DNA from: a virus
Taxonomy: Duplodnaviria; Heunggongvirae; Uroviricota; Caudoviricetes
IMG/VR virus record: IMGVR_UViG_2778261527_000006
Length of the DNA: 9,181 bases
Reading direction: 5' to 3' (one strand)
The position numbers were made by a program, and so were the translations under genes. This document shows positions 593 through 9,181 of this stretch, in pieces. The stretch's first letter is position 1. Each line of letters starts with the position of its first letter. The notes below the pieces were generated by a model. That model saw only the letters and a list, made by a program, of their open reading frames with translations. It searched no databases and was not told the DNA's origin.

Positions 593-2590
593 ATGGCTAA
601 AGCATGGAAAGATGTTATCGCCTCTCCACAGTATCAGGCGTTAGCACCAGAACAAAAAGCGCAGGCTCAGGAGCAATACTTCAATGAAGTCGTGGCCCCG
701 CAAGCCGGAGAAAATGCAGAGCAGGCTAAGCAAGCTTTCTATGCTGCCTATCCATTGCCATCTGTGCAGCAAGTGGAGACACAGCAACCAGTAGCACAGC
801 AACAACCACAGCAAAGTGGATTTATGTCTGATCTTGGCGAAGCAGTAAAAGAGACTGGCCGCGGACTGGTGCAGGCTGGCGTGAACGTGGCAAACATACC
901 TGCATCAGTTGCAGATGCTGTAACAAGCGCGGCGGCTTGGGCTGGCGGTAAACTCGGAATTGGCGATGGGACATATCACCCTGCGCCACGAGTAACAACG
1001 CAGGGATTAGAGCAGGACTTTGGCCTTCAGCAAGGCGCGCTGACTCCACAAACTACAGAGGGAAGGGTATTTGCTGAGGCATTGCCTTACCTCACTCCTG
1101 CTGGCATTGAGAGAGCGGCAACACAGGCACCAACACTCGCTGGTAGAATCGCTCAGGGTGCAACTCGCCTTCTCGCTGAAAACGCAGTCGGGTCACTTGC
1201 TGCAAATAGTGCGAAAGATGATGCGGAAGCACTCGCTACCGATTTAGGCGTTGGCGTTCTGGCTGGCGGCGCTATTAACGCTGCCGGACGTGGATTAGGC
1301 GCTGCTTATCGTGGCGTTCGTGGTGCTATTGCACCAGAAGCGCAGCAAGCTATCAGATTTGCAGAGCGTGAAGGAGTGCCTCTGCACACCACAGACCTGT
1401 TACAGCCTACTTCCCGCGTCGGAAAAATGGCGCAAACGACAGCAGAAAATATCCCCCTGGCTGGCACAAGCGGAATGAGAGCAACGCAACAGGAAGCGAG
1501 AAGCCAGTTGGTTCAGAGATTTGCTGATAAATTCGGTGAGTATGATCCAGCGGTTGTTATTGACAGCCTTAAAGCGAAAACATCAGGAATTCGTCGCGCT
1601 GCAGGAAATCGACTGGAGCAGGTTCAGAATGCTATGGCGAGAATAAACATTCAGCCTGCAAGAGCAATTCAGCAGATTGATACAGAAATATCTAACCTGC
1701 AGAAGCTTGGTAAGGTTGCTGATAACGAGACTATTTCAAAACTTCAGTCCTATCGTGATGAGCTTGTTCGCAATGCTGGTCCTGATGGTCCGGTAAATCT
1801 GGATTTGAAGCAATTAAGCGATCTGCGCAGCCAGTTCAGAATGGACGTGAAGGGGGAGCGACCAGTGTTACCAAACCGTTCCGATGCTGCCATTCAGCGC
1901 GTTTACAAGGCAATGACCGACGATATCAATGGTGCCATTGGTCAGAATCTTGGCAACGATACTCTCCGTAAATATCAGCAGGCCAATGCCGTCTACGCTG
2001 ACGAAGCGGCGAAACTAAAGAATACCAGGCTGAAGAATGTTCTCATGAAAGGCGACCTGACGCCGGAAGTTGTCAACAACATGCTATTCAGCAAGAACAA
2101 ATCGGAAATTAAGACTCTCTATAACTCAGTTGGTCGTGTTGGCAGGGCGCAAATGCGCAATGGCATCATTGGAAAGGCGATGGAGAAATCAGGTGGTTCC
2201 CCTGACCAGTTCCTTCGGCAGCTTAACATCCTGCAAAACCAGACTGGCATCACATTTAAAGGTCAGGAAGCCGCTTATCTGAAAGGATTGAAAAACTACC
2301 TGCAATCCACGCAGCAGGCTGCAAAAGCGGCAGTAACAACACCCACAGGGCAGCAAACTATCCCGTTCATTATTGGGTATGGGACGGCAATGAACCCGGC
2401 GACAACTGGCGCAGCAGTAAGCTACGGACTTCTTACTCGCGCCTATGAGAGCGAGCCATTCAGAAATGCAATGCTCCGAATGGCAAACACCCCACGCGGA
2501 TCAACAGCGTTCGAGAAAGCCATGCAGCAGGCACAAAAGGCCATTAACGCCCTGACTCAGGGGGCTAAGTCTGATGCGCTGTCAGAATAG
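593..2590 (+). CDS. putative phage DNA transfer / ejection protein (P22 E-protein class, gp16/gp20-like)
   Basis: 665-aa ORF with ATG at 593 and an upstream GGGGTGA SD, about 50% GC. Composition fits an ejection protein: Gln-rich N-terminus (QQVETQQPVAQQQPQQ), a Gly/Ala-rich hydrophobic stretch (LGVGVLAGGAINAAGRGLGAAY), then a long predicted helical region. It sits where the last ejection-protein gene lies in P22-like genomes, just before the immI (mnt) and tailspike genes. The functional call rests on synteny and composition, not a verified alignment. Confidence 0.5.
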   Translation: MAKAWKDVIASPQYQALAPEQKAQAQEQYFNEVVAPQAGENAEQAKQAFYAAYPLPSVQQVETQQPVAQQQPQQSGFMSDLGEAVKETGRGLVQAGVNVANIPASVADAVTSAAAWAGGKLGIGDGTYHPAPRVTTQGLEQDFGLQQGALTPQTTEGRVFAEALPYLTPAGIERAATQAPTLAGRIAQGATRLLAENAVGSLAANSAKDDAEALATDLGVGVLAGGAINAAGRGLGAAYRGVRGAIAPEAQQAIRFAEREGVPLHTTDLLQPTSRVGKMAQTTAENIPLAGTSGMRATQQEARSQLVQRFADKFGEYDPAVVIDSLKAKTSGIRRAAGNRLEQVQNAMARINIQPARAIQQIDTEISNLQKLGKVADNETISKLQSYRDELVRNAGPDGPVNLDLKQLSDLRSQFRMDVKGERPVLPNRSDAAIQRVYKAMTDDINGAIGQNLGNDTLRKYQQANAVYADEAAKLKNTRLKNVLMKGDLTPEVVNNMLFSKNKSEIKTLYNSVGRVGRAQMRNGIIGKAMEKSGGSPDQFLRQLNILQNQTGITFKGQEAAYLKGLKNYLQSTQQAAKAAVTTPTGQQTIPFIIGYGTAMNPATTGAAVSYGLLTRAYESEPFRNAMLRMANTPRGSTAFEKAMQQAQKAINALTQGAKSDALSE

Positions 2591-2679
2591 CTTCGCAAAC
2601 ACCAGGAACGTGCAAAAACCAAATATGTAGAACGCAATATTCAGCATATCTCTTTGCATAAATCCTCCGTAATGGATGG

Positions 2680-2940
2680 TTATCTGCTGTCTTTTTTATA
2701 TAGCTTCTTGAGCGTATCAAAGACAATTTTCTTAACCATATCAGATTGTTGTTCTGCCATACGCTCTGCATCGTCAATGTAAACTGATGCAGAGCTTTGT
2801 TTAGCCAACGATTCTTCAATCGCTGCAATTATCTCTGAGTTCAGCGATCTGTTATTCATCTTCGCACGCTGCTTAATTTTCGCGTGGAGTTCATGCGGAA
2901 GTCTCAAGTGAAACTGCGCCTCGTCGTATTTGCTGTACAT
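2680..2940 (-). CDS. mnt: Mnt-like ribbon-helix-helix transcriptional repressor
   Basis: Translation MYSKYDEAQFHLRLPHELHAKIKQRAKMNNRSLNSEIIAAIEESLAKQSSASVYIDDAERMAEQQSDMVKKIVFDTLKKLYKKDSR aligns along its length with P22 Mnt as I recall it (N-terminal beta-strand FNFRMP, RSMNSE helix, C-terminal VKKMVFDTLKDLYKK tetramerisation helix). An in-frame upstream ATG at 2973 with an AGGT SD would add 11 residues; homology to the short RHH N-terminal arm favours 2940. Confidence 0.8.
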   Translation of the reverse strand: MYSKYDEAQFHLRLPHELHAKIKQRAKMNNRSLNSEIIAAIEESLAKQSSASVYIDDAERMAEQQSDMVKKIVFDTLKKLYKKDSR

Positions 2941-3061
2941 CCTTGATGCCTCACCAGTTGGGTGGAATGGCATCGTAACCTACTGGATAAATACTCAATA
3001 GTACCATTTCGGTATGCAATCACATCATGGTTGCATCATATCATTCGTCTGGAGCAATGAA
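2941..3061. promoter_or_regulatory. divergent intergenic control region between mnt and the tailspike gene (candidate Mnt operator and promoters, not resolved)
   Basis: 121-bp gap between divergently transcribed mnt and tailspike. Contains an imperfect inverted repeat CACC-N5-GGTG at 2952-2964 and ATGCAA-N-TTGCAT at 3014-3038. No convincing sigma70 -35/-10 pair could be assigned by eye. Confidence 0.25.
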
Positions 3062-5128
3062 ATGTCAGATATCACCGCAAATGTTGTGGTAAGCATGCCT
3101 TCGCAACTCTTCACTATGGCGCGTTCTTTTAAAGCCGTAGCCAATGGAAAAATTTATATCGGTAAAATTGACACGGACCCGGTAAATCCTGAAAACCAGA
3201 TTCCGGTATATCTGGAACGAGAAGATGGTAAACATGTTCAGGTAGAACAACCAATTGTTATTAACTCTGCCGGTTATCCTGTGTATAACGGACAGATCGC
3301 CAAGTTCGTTACAGTGCAAGGCCATTCTATGGCTGTTTATGATGCGTATGGTGCACAGCAATTTTATTTCCCAAATGTGTTGAAGTACGACCCAGACCAA
3401 TTTAAGTATGAGCTTTCATCTTCACTTGGTTCTGGGATGGTTGGCGTCCAGCCAATTGGAACTTTGTATGATCAATCATTGTATGTTACACCGGAACAAT
3501 TCGGCGCTGTTGGTGATGGGGTTAATGATGATACAGAATCTATAGTGTCTGCTATGAAATACTGTTCTTCTGGGAAAATTCGTTGGGTAAGAGGTAAAAA
3601 AGGAAGCACATATCTCGTTTCTCAGGTAGAAATACCTGTTGGCATAAAAAAAATAAGTGATCTTAGCCTGATTGTCACAGCACAGGGTGGTGTCTGCTTG
3701 TTTTCGCAAGGTACTTCCGGTCACACAGACCTTGAAATTAGTGATTGTTCCATTAATGCAAATGGTGTTGCCAGAGGAGGAATTCTTCTTAGCGCAACAA
3801 CTAGGTGCAAAATACTAAGAAACAGAGTATATGGTTTCGGTGTTGATGGAACTGAACGATATGGTATACGTATTGGAACAACAGATATCACATCACTAAA
3901 CTTATACGATACCATAGAAGGAAATACAATTGAGATGCCCATAGATCCTGATAGTGGTGCAGGAACAGTTGGTATTGCTGGTATATATTTAGTAGCACAA
4001 AACAACATAGACACTGAAACTGGAAGTGTAAAATGGAATTCGCAACACAAAACCATTCAGTACATAACTGTGTCAAACAACACCGTTATCAACGGAACTC
4101 ACAACGTGCAAGCTTTCGGGTTATTTAATGCTGAATTTACAGGGAATATACTAATTGGAGGTTCGCATCGTAATATAAATCTTGGAACTGGTTGCGAGCG
4201 TGTAAAAATAGAGGGAAATAGGCTAATCAATGCAGAATCATCAGCAATTATTTTTGGAGAATCTAGATATATACAGATATCAAACAACTATATACAGTCA
4301 GCCTCTACTTCTAGTTACATATCTGATGATGCAGCTATCCAGTTTGCACAAGGTGCATACAGTATAGACATAATAGGCAACATGATACTAGGTGACTGGA
4401 GATACGGAGTACATTGCTTTAACTCGCGATATGTTTCATTAAAAAATAATACAATAACAGCATCTGTAGCTTGTATAGGAATAGAATCATCACAGACGCT
4501 TAAATTACCTGATAATGCAATATACAGTTCCAGAAGGAGTGTTACCAAGATGATTAATGGAAGCACGACTGAGTATTCCATATCTGGAAACGTATATACA
4601 CCTAACGGTGATTCAGCATGTGCTATTTATCTTTGCCAGCTAAATGGTGTTGTTCTTGGTAATATAAATATATATGGAGAAACAATCCATCAGGCTGGTA
4701 ATTTCAGACACATATTATACTTAGTTGAAGATGATAGTTTAATGACAGGAATTTCTGCCATAGATATTTCAGCAAAAAATGCTAATTACTCACAGTACTA
4801 TAGCATTAGGGGAAGGACTCCTTTCTATAAAATAGATAACGTTACCGCTCTTGAGGACCCATCTATTGAATATTTTGCTCCGGGAGGCACATCTAGTGCA
4901 TTTGTCGGGCCAAGCATATACCTTGACAATAAAGTTGTAAGTTACTTTTCTAATGGAATTGATGGGCAAATAATACAAGTAAGAATGTCTATAGGATCAA
5001 AGTTAATTCATAATAACAAGCTTATAAGGTTAAGAGGAGAAACAGATATAGCGTCAATATCAGGCAACACAATTATAACACTAAAAAGACTGAGTGGTAT
5101 TTGGTTTGAAATTTCAAGGAGTATATAA
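3062..5128 (+). CDS. phage tailspike protein: P22 gp9-type N-terminal head-binding domain fused to a pectate-lyase-like right-handed beta-helix receptor-binding/depolymerase domain
   Basis: The N-terminus [97 protein letters not shown]...NVLKYDPDQ matches the P22 tailspike head-binding domain ([56 protein letters not shown]...VLKYDPDQ). Downstream, [25 protein letters not shown] is a pectate-lyase-3-type signature, followed by repeated beta-helix motifs ([73 protein letters not shown]). The track ORF begins at ATG 3014, but the ATG at 3062 has a GGAG SD at 3051-3054 and gives the canonical N-terminus. Confidence 0.9.
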
Positions 5129-5174
5129 GGATTAGCTGGAGGGTTTAATAAAGCATGATAATTATTGCGTGTAA

Positions 5175-5217
5175 TAAATCACAAATTTAAACAATTCGTG
5201 ATTTATTTTCTTTTATC
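5175..5217 (+). terminator. candidate rho-independent terminator downstream of the tailspike gene
   Basis: Inverted repeat TAAATCACAAATT (5175-5187) / AATTCGTGATTTA (5193-5205), 12 of 13 bp paired, 5-nt loop, followed directly by TTTTCTTTTATC (5206-5217). The stem is AT-rich, so stability is modest. Confidence 0.35.
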
Positions 5218-5232
5218 TATGCGAAAATTACA

Positions 5233-5275
5233 AAATAATGGTGAGGTATTTTTCTATAAAGCCTCACCATTATTT
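5233..5275 (-). terminator. candidate terminator hairpin abutting the stop codon of the Wzy-like gene
   Basis: Perfect 13-14 bp inverted repeat AAATAATGGTGAG(G) (5233-5246) / (C)CTCACCATTATTT (5262-5275) with a loop of about 15 nt, ending next to the stop codon at 5276-5278. On the minus strand it is followed by TGTAATTTTCG, a weak T-tract. Confidence 0.3.
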
Positions 5276-6415
5276 TTACCCTGCGCAAAAATTGCGCAAA
5301 AAATCATTAAGATTTTCGCATCTTTTATTTCTTAGCATTTCTACACTCCTTTCATTATCCATAATCCAGTCAACTCTGTATTCCAATAATCTAGGTCTCT
5401 TTTCATCACTGAATGTTTTAACAGTTACAATTGATGAAATTAGAATGACCGTAGAAACTATAGCAATTGAATCGTAAGCGATTACGCTCTTTCTATATGT
5501 TGAAAGTATGTATCCAAACAAAAACGTCAATGGAATAAACATGTAATAGTAAAAGCGTGAAAATGCTGGTATAAAATAAATACCTATATGCAAGCATGCA
5601 AATATGAAAATTATATTCCATATTCTAGTGTATTCATCTTTACTTTTCCTGATTAGGAATCGCGTAATAATGATAAGATCAGCAATAATACCAAACCCAA
5701 AACCTACACTGCTGAGTGATTCTGAATAAAGAGATGCTTTACGCGCAAGCTCTACCCCAACTACAGGTATAGAGTAAACAAACTCAGTATTGCTCAAAAC
5801 AATACCACCAATTAATACCATTAAAGTTGTTATGCAAATACCTTTAATTACAAGCGGTTTTCTCTCTGAATAGTATACATGCCAGAATATCAGCACTATA
5901 ATTGCGGAGTAATGAAAAAGCGAAGCTATTAAAACAGACACTATAAATAGTCTGATTCTTTTGTCTAAAAGAAAATTAATTGAGTGGAAGCATATTACAA
6001 TAGCCACAAATTGACGTATTTGATCAACAACAAGAGACAGACCACCAAGCAAACACATGGCAAGCAATGTAGCAGGAATGTTTATAGGTATTGGTGCTTT
6101 TTTTAATGCAATAAAAGCGATGTAAAATGATAAAAGATAAAATATGAAAATAGCTGATTGAAAATTTATAGACAAATTTGCTAATACATAAAGATATATA
6201 TTGAATAGCAAATCGTAATTTATGGAGAACTCACTTTTAAATCCATCAAATACATAATAATAATTAACCCAATCAATTCCATTTGAATAGACAGCAGTAA
6301 AAATGCAAGAGCAGAATATTACATATGCCATTGCAAATAGTCGGTTAAATCTACATCTGAATGCACATATAAAAACGAAAGCAAGCGAAGTGAAGAAAAA
6401 AAATATCCAAATCAT
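5276..6415 (-). CDS. EpsG/Wzy-like polytopic inner-membrane protein (putative O-antigen polymerase / serotype-conversion protein)
   Basis: About 28-32% GC. The translation is highly hydrophobic with many predicted TM segments, and the N-terminal loop motif YSNGIDWVNYYYVFDGF resembles the G-x-D-(W/Y)-x-x-Y motif of EpsG-family / Wzy-type polymerases. No acyltransferase-3 (R-x-x-x-D-x-x-R-G) signature is seen. The track ORF starts at TTG 6439 with no SD; the first ATG at 6415 has an AGGT SD 6 nt upstream (379 aa from that start). Confidence 0.6.
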   Translation of the reverse strand: MIWIFFFFTSLAFVFICAFRCRFNRLFAMAYVIFCSCIFTAVYSNGIDWVNYYYVFDGFKSEFSINYDLLFNIYLYVLANLSINFQSAIFIFYLLSFYIAFIALKKAPIPINIPATLLAMCLLGGLSLVVDQIRQFVAIVICFHSINFLLDKRIRLFIVSVLIASLFHYSAIIVLIFWHVYYSERKPLVIKGICITTLMVLIGGIVLSNTEFVYSIPVVGVELARKASLYSESLSSVGFGFGIIADLIIITRFLIRKSKDEYTRIWNIIFIFACLHIGIYFIPAFSRFYYYMFIPLTFLFGYILSTYRKSVIAYDSIAIVSTVILISSIVTVKTFSDEKRPRLLEYRVDWIMDNERSVEMLRNKRCENLNDFLRNFCAG

Positions 6416-6439
6416 AAAATTACCTACAAAATTACACAA

Positions 6440-6722: not shown

Positions 6723-7937
6723 TTATTTGGTTATGTTGACATTTTTGTTGTTTTTGCTGAGTGAATATAGCAATGTTGGTTGCTCCACCTTTTCATCAAC
6801 CCAATCCGCCCACCACTGCATCATTTCTCTGCGCTTATCGAGATACTGAGCATGGTTGTAAATCCCACGCACAGATCCGCCGTTGGCATGTGCCAGTTGC
6901 ACTTCAATAGCATCAGCAGGCCATTCGTGCTCGTTCATAATCGTGCTGAATTCATGCCTGAATCCGTGACCGCTTTCCAGACCCTCATAGCCGATTTGTT
7001 TGATCACAAGCAATACCGCGTTCTCGCAGATTGGCTTCTTCTTATCGTTGCGACCGGCAAAAACAAACTCTGATACTGGTTTGGTGATGGAGCTTAGCGT
7101 AGTGAGAAGTTCAACTACCTGGTCTGACATAGGAACCACATGAATTTTGCGTCCCTTCATCACACTGGCGTCGATGGTGATAATCCTGTTTTCAAAATCG
7201 ACGTTCTTCCATAGCATGGAACGAAGCTCTTTCGTTCTTAGGGCTGTGTAGCGTAAAACTTTGGTCGCAATGAGCGATACGATACTTCCTGAAAATGTTG
7301 CCAGTGCTTTGTTGAATGCCGGGATCTGGTCTGCAGGAAGAAACGGGAAGTTCTTCTTGCGGTATCCCTTCATGGCGTCAGCAAGGTCAGGTGCTGGGTT
7401 ATATTTAGCCCTTCCGGTGACAATAGCGTAACGGAAAACCTCGCCGCATCTTCTGCGGGCTTTGTTGGCTCGCTCCATTGCACCGCGATCTTCGAATCTT
7501 CGGATTACTTCCAGCAGTTGCATCGGCTCAATATCCTGAATCTCAAGACCGCCGATGATGGGTAAAATGTCGTCGTCAAACATTTTGGCAAGTTCGTTTG
7601 CATAGCCTACTGACCAGACTTGCTTCTTGTGCTCGTACCATTCCTTGTAAATCGCACTAAAGGAATTGTTGTTAGACGAAGCCTTTTTCGCCTTTACCGG
7701 ATCGATGCCAACCGAGATGTCTTTCCTCGCAGTCCATGTCTTATCCCTTGCTTCCTGCAAAGTCATAAGCGGATATTTTCCGACAGTCAGGATTTTCTCC
7801 TTACCGTCAATCTTGTAGCGAAGCTGCCATACCTTTTTCCCTGATACAGGGACATAAAGGTACAGGCCATTACCATCGAGTAGGCGGTATGGTTTTTCTT
7901 TCGGCTTTGCTGCTTCAATCTGCTTAACGGTGAGCAT
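6723..7937 (-). CDS. intS: site-specific tyrosine integrase (P4-type, tRNA-associated; IntS-like)
   Basis: The N-terminus MLTVKQIEAAKPKEKPYRLLDGNGLYLYVPVSGKKVWQLRYKIDGKEK matches the DUF4102 arm-binding domain of P4-family integrases. The catalytic region has HGFRHEF (H-x-x-R) and RGIYNHAQY (candidate catalytic Tyr). It lies directly beside the tRNA-Arg 3' end, as in the K-12 yfdC-argW-intS locus. The track start (7973) is a GTG; the ATG at 7937 gives the canonical N-terminus. Confidence 0.9.
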   Translation of the reverse strand: MLTVKQIEAAKPKEKPYRLLDGNGLYLYVPVSGKKVWQLRYKIDGKEKILTVGKYPLMTLQEARDKTWTARKDISVGIDPVKAKKASSNNNSFSAIYKEWYEHKKQVWSVGYANELAKMFDDDILPIIGGLEIQDIEPMQLLEVIRRFEDRGAMERANKARRRCGEVFRYAIVTGRAKYNPAPDLADAMKGYRKKNFPFLPADQIPAFNKALATFSGSIVSLIATKVLRYTALRTKELRSMLWKNVDFENRIITIDASVMKGRKIHVVPMSDQVVELLTTLSSITKPVSEFVFAGRNDKKKPICENAVLLVIKQIGYEGLESGHGFRHEFSTIMNEHEWPADAIEVQLAHANGGSVRGIYNHAQYLDKRREMMQWWADWVDEKVEQPTLLYSLSKNNKNVNITK

Positions 7938-7982
7938 GGGTAAAAATCCGGTGGGTAAAATTATTTTATCCACTTTTTACCC
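7938..7982. repeat. GGGTAAAA(A) repeats at the int 5' end (candidate integrase arm-type binding sites / int promoter region)
   Basis: GGGTAAAAA at 7938-7946, GGGTAAAA at 7953-7960, and the inverted copy TTTTTACCC at 7974-7982, all within 45 bp directly upstream of the int ATG. A consensus TTGACA lies on the minus strand at 7998-8003. Confidence 0.3.
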
Positions 7983-8098
7983 GTCATGGAGTGCGGCTGT
8001 CAACGATCTGACGCGAACCATGACGAACTGTGAATCTACGGGAGGCTTGATATTCAGGGGATTTTGCGGACTGGTACGGATGGGAGCGAACTGATAAA

Positions 8099-8173
8099 TG
8101 GTGTCCCCTGCAGGAATCGAACCTGCAATTAGCCCTTAGGAGGGGCTCGTTATATCCATTTAACTAAGAGGAC
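8099..8173 (-). tRNA. argW: tRNA-Arg (anticodon CCU)
   Basis: The reverse complement reads GTCCTCTTAGTTAAATGGATATAACGAGCCCCTCCTAAGGGCTAATTGCAGGTTCGATTCCTGCAGGGGACACCA: a 7-bp acceptor stem (GTCCTCT/GGGGACA, one G-U pair), anticodon loop CT-CCT-AA, T-arm GGTTCGATTCC, encoded CCA. The 3' end faces the integrase gene. Confidence 0.95.
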
Positions 8174-8178
8174 AATGC

Positions 8179-8220
8179 GGCATGAGTATACCCGCTAATG
8201 GACTGCGGGGTAAGTACGCT
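8179..8220 (-). promoter_or_regulatory. possible argW promoter
   Basis: Minus-strand TATACT (plus coordinates 8185-8190) lies 11 nt upstream of the mature tRNA 5' end; the -35 is weak. Low confidence. Confidence 0.2.
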
Positions 8221-8248
8221 GCCGCTCGATTGCTTAAACCCTCGCCAT

Positions 8249-9181
8249 TTATGCTGGGTTTTTATCATTTTTCTTAATGTTTTCCGCACGTTCTGCTTTT
8301 TGGCGTGCTTCTGCTTTACGCTTGTTGCTCATGTCGTTACGAATCTGTGCATGACTCATTAACGCGAAGATAAAGGTGCCGCCGCAGATGTTCCCCGCTA
8401 AAGTAGGTAGTGCGAAGGGCCAGATGAAATCGCTCCAGTGCAGCGTGCCGTTAAACACCAGATAGAGGATTTCAACAGAACCGACAACGATGTGGGTGGT
8501 GTCACCCAGTGCAATAAGCCAGGTCATCAATATAATCACCACAATCTTTGCCGCACCCGCAGCAGGAAACATCCAAACCATAGTGGCGATCAGCCAGCCG
8601 GAAATGATCGCGTTGGCAAACATCTCGCTGGGGGTGTTCTTCATCACATCCATGCCGATTTTGACAAATGCATCGCGAGTTTCTTCATTGAAGATAGGCA
8701 TATATTCAAATGCCCATGCAGCAATACCTGTCCCGAGAATATTACCCAGCAGCACGACGCCCCATAATCGCATAAGTAAGCCGACGTTGCTCATTGTCGG
8801 TTTTTGCATGACGGGTAGTACCGCAGTCACGGTGTTTTCGGTAAATAATTGCTGGCGGGCCATTATGACGATAATAAAACCAAAGGTATAACCGAGATTC
8901 TCCAGTAAGAAGCTGCCCGGCACACCTTCCAGTTCGACATGAAATATCCCTTTTGCCAGTAACGAAGCGCCCATCGACAGACCCGCCGCAATGGCTGACC
9001 ACAGTAGCGCCATTGCGTCGCGTTCCAGCTCTTTTTCACCATCCTGGCGGATATGCTCATGAATTGCCATCGCCCGGGAGGGGAGTCGGTCTTCATCTAT
9101 TTCTATTTTTTTGCCGCGCTCTTTTTCTTCGCTCTCAACTTCAATTTCGTCGCTGTGTTGATCAATTTTGTCGTTGTCCAT
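8249..9181 (-). CDS. yfdC: formate/nitrite transporter (FNT) family inner membrane protein YfdC
   Basis: Complete 310-aa ORF with ATG at the window edge (9179-9181): a hydrophilic acidic N-terminus followed by multiple TM segments, about 50% GC. Its position next to argW matches the conserved enterobacterial yfdC-argW arrangement. Identity is recalled, not searched. Confidence 0.8.
   Translation of the reverse strand: MDNDKIDQHSDEIEVESEEKERGKKIEIDEDRLPSRAMAIHEHIRQDGEKELERDAMALLWSAIAAGLSMGASLLAKGIFHVELEGVPGSFLLENLGYTFGFIIVIMARQQLFTENTVTAVLPVMQKPTMSNVGLLMRLWGVVLLGNILGTGIAAWAFEYMPIFNEETRDAFVKIGMDVMKNTPSEMFANAIISGWLIATMVWMFPAAGAAKIVVIILMTWLIALGDTTHIVVGSVEILYLVFNGTLHWSDFIWPFALPTLAGNICGGTFIFALMSHAQIRNDMSNKRKAEARQKAERAENIKKNDKNPA

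Follow-up and report, generated by a model that had tools for sequence, protein, structure and literature searches.

A mnt repressor gene lacking arc and ant, placed divergently from the tailspike gene of a P22-like prophage

Villafane et al. 2008 (PMC2629481) gave the name 'ant moron' to the region that separates gene 16 from the tailspike gene in P22-like phages. In P22 it contains immI (mnt-arc-ant-sar, with the promoters Pant and Pmnt and the operators Omnt and Oarc), where Mnt represses ant expression (PMC7380047), and polymerases from the late promoter are thought to transcribe through the region into gene 9, the tailspike gene (PMC2629481). Reduced forms have been described: ST64T, ST104 and Para1 have only mnt plus one ORF in that region (PMC2629481), and phage L, which is genetically without immI, has mnt only (Zaworski et al. 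2021, PMC8022706). For the lone mnt of L-type genomes, the literature leaves undecided whether the gene is a leftover or serves a new purpose (PMC8022706). In BTP1, an abundant RNA of more than 700 nt, STnc6030, which is antisense to an injection gene's 3' end and the tailspike gene's 5' end, provides immunity to BTP1 (PMC7067206).

The DNA analysed here (IMG/VR record IMGVR_UViG_2778261527_000006; the whole stretch of 9,181 nucleotides is hereafter the window) forms the right end of a P22-like (Lederbergvirus) prophage, the features of which are collected in Table 1. The gp16-type gene, labelled 'P22-gp16 family phage DNA ejection protein' in RefSeq neighbours, is the final late-operon gene ahead of the mnt cassette, and its end is separated from the 3' end of mnt by a gap of only 89 bp. 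The mnt homologue and the tailspike gene (Pfam Head_binding 2.7e-64; phrog_8280 1.3e-184; GGAG Shine-Dalgarno at 3051-3054) are divergent, and the spacer between them (2941-3061) is exactly 121 bp; the coordinates of the earlier note, which had put this distance at about 120 bp, were likewise exact. The integrase, tRNA and transporter genes within 6723-9181 mark the prophage-chromosome junction, which is at an arginine tRNA gene. The EpsG-family gene, with a GC content of about 30% against about 48% for the prophage, fills the lysogenic-conversion slot between tailspike and integrase and is possibly an O-antigen polymerase-like or modification gene; in relatives the same slot holds an O-acetyltransferase or glycosyltransferase instead.

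Table 1. Coordinates of features in the window and, in the last row, of antirepressor-type genes in related loci.
Feature	Coordinates	Strand	Remarks
P22 gp16-type DNA transfer (ejection) gene	593..2590	+	phrog_770 'DNA transfer protein', 4.8e-238
mnt homologue, 86 aa	2680..2940	-	Pfam Arc and Repressor_Mnt; PDB 1MNT, 1QEY
Inverted repeat GATGCC...GGCATC around an inner CACC/GGTG pair	2945..2974		Overlaps mnt Shine-Dalgarno region and candidate -10
Relic or candidate rightward promoter at the Pant position, ATGGCA-17-AATACT	2967..2995	+	6.8 bits
Candidate Pmnt	2972..2998	-	-35 TTGAGT (2998-2993), 15-nt spacer, -10 TACGAT (2977-2972)
Putative Mnt operator GTACCATTTCGGTAT, imperfect palindrome TACC-N5-GGTA, 15 bp	3001..3015		P22 register, conservation
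9-bp hairpin AUGCAAUCA / UGGUUGCAU in tailspike leader	3014..3036	+	Just before the Shine-Dalgarno
Tailspike gene, P22-type head-binding domain and beta-helix receptor-binding part	3062..5128	+
EpsG-family membrane protein gene, 387 aa, polytopic	5276..6439	-	EpsG 1.4e-27
Integrase gene	6723..7973	-
tRNA-Arg(CCT)	8099..8173
Formate/nitrite-transporter-family gene	After tRNA-Arg(CCT), within 6723-9181
Antirepressor-type genes in relatives	L004 (JEP4) 3270-5930; L009 1072-2745; L008 about 4200-5360

That the opposite-strand gene encodes a true Mnt homologue, as the earlier note had held, was confirmed for both halves of the protein. The N-terminal ribbon-helix-helix DNA-binding domain (Pfam Arc PF03869, 6.8e-15, residues 7-49) and the C-terminal tetramerisation helix (Pfam Repressor_Mnt PF11423, 9e-15, residues 57-82) were both recognised, and the protein matched the solved N-terminal (1MNT, 5e-19) and tetramerisation (1QEY, 4e-8) domains of P22 Mnt. 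Alignment with P22 Mnt gave 48% identity, with a recognition strand of QFHLRL in the window protein and HFNFRM in P22; DNA binding and repression as a tetramer are putative functions by homology. The gene lies in a reverse-strand ORF (2680-2973), and its predicted start is the ATG at 2940. The alternative ATG at 2973, used in the Sf101 annotation, was rejected because phage Gally has the added upstream stretch out of frame and locus L007 has an in-frame stop in it. Homologues of this protein are often labelled 'partition protein ATPase' or 'chromosome segregation ATPase' (phrog_795; RefSeq entries for Sf101, ST64T, ST104, ST160 and others), which for a ribbon-helix-helix repressor of 83-86 aa is a propagated mis-annotation; the IME10 homologue is unannotated, and the Sf101 paper does not discuss the one in Sf101.

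The absence of arc and ant was also borne out, a tblastn check of the window (E up to 10) having found no remnants of either. The sole match to P22 Arc was the ribbon-helix-helix domain of Mnt itself, P22 Ant gave no match better than E = 0.47, and nothing was found with P22 SieA. The 121-bp spacer is too short to hold arc, and a search with Rfam did not find sar RNA, returning just a spurious sub-threshold eukaryotic match. The locus regions of three E. coli genomes contained the same mnt-tailspike pair, and no gene is annotated as an antirepressor anywhere in the Sf101 genome, the one Rha-like gene of which carries the annotation transcriptional regulator.

In some relatives, Rha-, KilA- or ANT-like antirepressor-type genes do occur in the interval from gene 16 to the 3' end of mnt (Table 1). 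JEP4 (L004) has a separate repressor gene beside genes of the Rha/KilA type, and L008 has a second Arc/Mnt-like ORF near its antirepressor-type genes. In JEP4 and the Serratia locus the Rha/KilA-like genes are on the opposite side of mnt from the operator; a module in that interval therefore does not adjoin the Mnt operator.

A search of the spacer for an Omnt-like palindrome had been suggested. A putative equivalent site was located in the P22 register, 47 bp upstream of the tailspike ATG, but the P22 sequence itself, GGTCCACGGTGGACC, which in P22 directly follows 'ctcaata', is absent from the window, and the site could be found only via register and comparison. When aligned on the palindrome, all eight lineages showed the P22 register of 'CAATA' followed by a 15-mer, and the order in the window (-35 hexamer TTGAGT, then 'ta', then GTACCATTTCGGTAT) retained the spacing seen in P22. 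The consensus in 157 loci with a QFHLRL-type Mnt was GTACCnTTTnGGTAy. The window operator is symmetric at only four of seven positions, and as a palindrome alone is no better than chance; it is present in a single copy in the window and, within two mismatches, in a single copy in the Sf101 genome. Recognition strand and operator change together across types: HFNFRM (P22, epsilon34) pairs with GGTCCACGGTGGACC, QFNLRL (L, Gally) with AGACCACnGTGGTCT, and QFHLRL (the window, JEP4, and Citrobacter, Buttiauxella and Serratia loci) with the consensus given above. The case for a putative operator at this position is thus made from register, conservation and co-variation.

Promoters were scored with a simple sigma-70 weight matrix derived from classical consensus frequencies, on which P22 Pmnt (TTGAGA-17-TATCAT) gave 14.3 bits. 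The candidate Pmnt of the window, positionally homologous to it, gave 8.5 bits, a value reached by chance in 22-27% and not significant alone. The same hexamer positions scored 9.2-11.7 bits in L, Gally, JEP4, L007, L008 and L009; the leftward hexamers are accordingly recognisable across lineages (8.5-11.7 bits) while the Pant -10 position decays. The -10 hexamer TACGAT was invariant in all QFHLRL-type relatives, and a 2-bp indel accounts for the spacer of 15 nt in the window type as against 17 nt in the JEP4, L007 and L008 types. An alternative leftward promoter with the operator within its spacer scored 12.7 bits in L007 and 11.4 in L009 and was weak (6.6) in the window; since it is the stronger in some relatives, both leftward promoters are treated as candidates only. 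The inverted repeat at 2945-2974 was kept in every Mnt specificity type, L and Gally included, and its wobble variants are a hint that the mnt-sense strand pairs as RNA; an RNA hairpin in the mnt leader formed by GATGCC/GGCATC was not retained as a feature, its covariation being only weak by pair counts.

Described in the earlier note as unusual wiring, the arrangement proved to be common as well as already published, as the mnt-only design of ST64T, ST104 and L (PMC2629481, PMC8022706). The mnt N-terminus and control region were present in 267 of 5426 complete E. coli genomes (about 5%), among them E. coli W, which is 99.6% identical over 2830-3061, and the whole gp16-mnt-tailspike stretch in 136 genomes. 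The spacer measured exactly 121 bp in 63 of the 86 related loci with a measurable spacer, and the same architecture was kept in Escherichia, Citrobacter, Buttiauxella and Serratia. An 801-bp stretch around the cassette was 94.5% identical in phage IME10, and the part of it that begins at the end of mnt and reaches into the tailspike gene was 93.6% identical in Sf101.

The mnt ORF was intact in 80 of 82 close relatives, and a pN/pS of 0.17 over 57 alleles (0.12 for the DNA-binding half) showed mnt to be under purifying selection. Diversity in the spacer was 0.0365, compared with 0.094 at synonymous sites, and was lowest at the operator (0.014) and next lowest in the Pmnt hexamer region (0.018), such that these control elements are some six times less diverse than synonymous sites; judged by these comparisons, mnt and its control cassette look functional. 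Throughout the 157 loci the operator was always the element nearest to the tailspike side, the exceptions being loci with HNH insertions and Serratia L009. One heavily deleted prophage (L093, E. coli EC556), reduced to terminase, gp4 and tail gene fragments, still has an intact mnt-tailspike pair.

The sequence to the right of the operator was more changeable. A recombination joint was located at 3016-3020, where one and the same mnt/operator block is joined either to a leader of the window type or to one of the P22 type ('AACCGTAGCCATGCTGCGG...'); a minority of E. coli matches stop at query position 187-190. Pairing of the leader hairpin was kept in 26-28 of 28 unique relatives, with alternation between U.G, U-A and C-G and one double compensatory change (L005), although no part of the spacer varies more. 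In the P22-type leader this place is taken by another hairpin, CCGUAG...CUGCGG. In Serratia L009 (560-720) no tailspike gene comes after the operator; in its place are about 95 nt that end in a strong terminator-like hairpin with a T-run, and this stretch could specify a small rightward RNA. At least 12 relatives have an HNH_3/AP2 homing-endonuclease gene on the opposite strand, inserted directly after a relic tailspike start 'ATGTCAGATATCACC' and followed by the new, real tailspike start; the spacers are of 727-728 bp (L006, L026, L072, L076, L086), 654 bp (L019, L049, L054, L055, L068, L075, L084) or 660 bp (L082), and the insertion point is common to at least three different endonuclease alleles.

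With respect to expression of the tailspike gene, no significant rightward promoter was found in the spacer (2941-3061). The best rightward score belonged to the candidate at the Pant position, the predicted start of which falls inside the operator; its 6.8 bits, compared with 16.7 for P22 Pant (TTGACA-17-TATATT) on the same matrix, were reached by 44-54% of shuffled or random 121-nt windows, whereas 14 bits was reached by none. The hexamer at the Pant -10 position, TATATT in P22, differed in every mnt-only lineage: L has TATATC, the window TAAATA, JEP4 CAAATC, L007 CGAACC and Gally TGCATC. The strong rightward promoter of P22 has decayed here. Nor was the tailspike gene evidently cut off from the late operon by mnt, as had been supposed: sieA, orf59a and mnt of P22 are themselves antisense within the late operon, the viable phages L, Sf101 and IME10 share the opposite-strand mnt layout, and no terminator-like site was predicted on either strand in 2500-3200. 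Terminators sought around mnt were likewise discounted, with fold z-scores of about -1 and unremarkable local folds. With no significant rightward promoter and no terminator predicted, and with mnt antisense in P22 too, the tailspike gene is most likely read from the late operon, and Mnt most likely regulates its own synthesis.

The explanation preferred here, which is accorded an even chance of being correct, is that the locus is a minimal mnt-only version of P22 immI, or 'ant moron': a self-contained, autoregulated unit of Mnt, Pmnt and operator that stayed behind once arc-ant had been lost, with the tailspike gene served by late read-through. The arc-ant cargo is absent, with a sequence joint immediately right of the operator. 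In the lysogen, mnt would be transcribed leftward from the candidate Pmnt, and an Mnt tetramer would bind the putative operator beside its own -35 hexamer, thereby setting its own level and occupying the former start site of Pant. As the last gene of the late operon, the tailspike gene would be reached, as in P22 and phage L, by antiterminated transcription that reads across antisense mnt. Given late read-through and autoregulation, Mnt would not be the main gate on the tailspike gene; at most it would silence leaky rightward transcription at the junction in the lysogen.

The proposal of the earlier note that Mnt directly gates tailspike transcription would require a dedicated tailspike promoter in the form of a shortened Pant (2967-2995), shut off in the lysogen and freed once Mnt declines. 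The operator, kept in the P22 register, would occlude starts at the old Pant start site, it always adjoins the tailspike leader, and the leader hairpin is conserved on the tailspike-sense strand. Berget, Poteete and Sauer reportedly observed in 1983 that Pant transcripts of P22 reach gene 9. The idea of Pant read-through in P22 is also cited in PMC2629481. However, the candidate's score is at chance level and its hexamers are not conserved in the JEP4-type, L007, Gally and L spacers, phage L being viable with its altered -10 hexamer. Moreover, in the HNH-insertion relatives, which have the window-type Mnt allele, the tailspike gene is at least 650 bp from the operator and no strong rightward promoter was found close to its start. 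Direct gating would thus have no promoter to act on, and is considered unlikely.

A second possibility is that resident Mnt acts in trans, repressing the ant promoter of incoming full-immI relatives with the same operator and so preventing anti-repression of the prophage. Such a role would explain why purifying selection acts on the protein and on its DNA specificity alike, with no need for a cis target. In the work of Susskind and Botstein, prophage Mnt is said to act on superinfecting P22 genomes too. A suitable target was not apparent, though: in all 157 QFHLRL-type loci the operator had neither arc nor ant beside it, not one of the 90 phage records with an Mnt relative showed a QFHLRL-type Mnt together with ant, and the arc-ant phage epsilon34 uses the P22 operator. 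A conserved cis operator would, furthermore, be superfluous, and trans-immunity is judged decidedly unlikely. Epsilon34, tried as an arc-ant-bearing partner for the L-type operator, was ruled out by the P22 operator that it carries.

Autoregulation alone does not explain purifying selection on an orphan repressor in about 5% of E. coli genomes, and an operator always nearest to the tailspike side would also fit a tailspike-directed role. It is conceivable, if distinctly improbable, that the cassette, at the end of the late operon, serves as a lysogen-specific insulator and is selected as such, or gives immunity against relatives. As an insulator, Mnt at the operator, acting with convergent leftward transcription, would stop stray transcription from running rightward into the tailspike gene and also keep it out of the convergent O-antigen conversion gene beyond. 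If true, this would be a re-purposing of Mnt, from antirepressor control to control of a junction.

It might also be argued that the leftward mnt RNA matters as much as the protein, serving as an interference or immunity RNA antisense to late read-through at the gp16-tailspike junction. BTP1 STnc6030 offers a possible parallel (PMC7067206), and with no terminator predicted after mnt, transcripts may enter the 3' end of the gp16-type gene. The low pN/pS, lowest in the DNA-binding domain, nevertheless shows the protein itself to be selected, and recognition strand and operator co-vary, making this reading very unlikely. That the cassette is a functionless relic of a decaying immI region, which is named as one possibility in the phage L paper (PMC8022706) and would suit the decayed Pant, the poorly symmetric operator and the Pmnt spacer 2 bp shorter in the window type, is the least probable of all in view of the intact and constrained ORF, the low diversity of the control elements, the architecture kept from Escherichia to Serratia and the many E. 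coli genomes concerned.

Returning to the mnt-only reading, the question that the L-type genomes pose is here met by a widespread E. coli/Shigella version of the gene that favours a functional mnt, with purifying selection, a kept promoter/operator geometry and its own pairing of recognition strand and operator. It also provides a simple testable system, carried by E. coli W, in which there is one repressor, one site and no cargo.

The locus does not reveal a new kind of regulation, its layout having already been described in phage L. As annotated in that phage, mnt on its own lies on the opposite strand, with gene 16 on one side and the tailspike gene, from which it is divergent, on the other, and the likeness to L, ST64T and ST104 extends to a spacer of 121-135 bp (135 bp in L), the lack of arc, ant and sieA, and Pmnt-like hexamers plus an operator in the P22 register. 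Phage L differs in pairing QFNLRL with a perfect palindrome, AGACCACCGTGGTCT, where the window pairs QFHLRL with an imperfect one, in its tailspike leader, and in having orf62 in addition, plus a bidirectional terminator following mnt, in place of the short gap. With P22 immI the window shares a homologous two-domain repressor in the same late-operon position and orientation and the same spacing from leftward -35 to operator; it differs in its operator sequence and recognition residues, and in that arc, ant, sar, Oarc and a strong Pant are all missing. Sf101, IME10 and the E. coli W prophage have the same module at 94-99.6% identity, with different tailspike receptor-binding parts and conversion genes. 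The likeness to BTP1 STnc6030 would be that of a lysogen-expressed leftward transcript, predicted in the window, at the injection-gene/tailspike junction of a P22-like prophage; the BTP1 locus, however, has no ORF of more than 60 aa and its RNA itself confers immunity (PMC7067206), whereas the window transcript would encode a selected protein.
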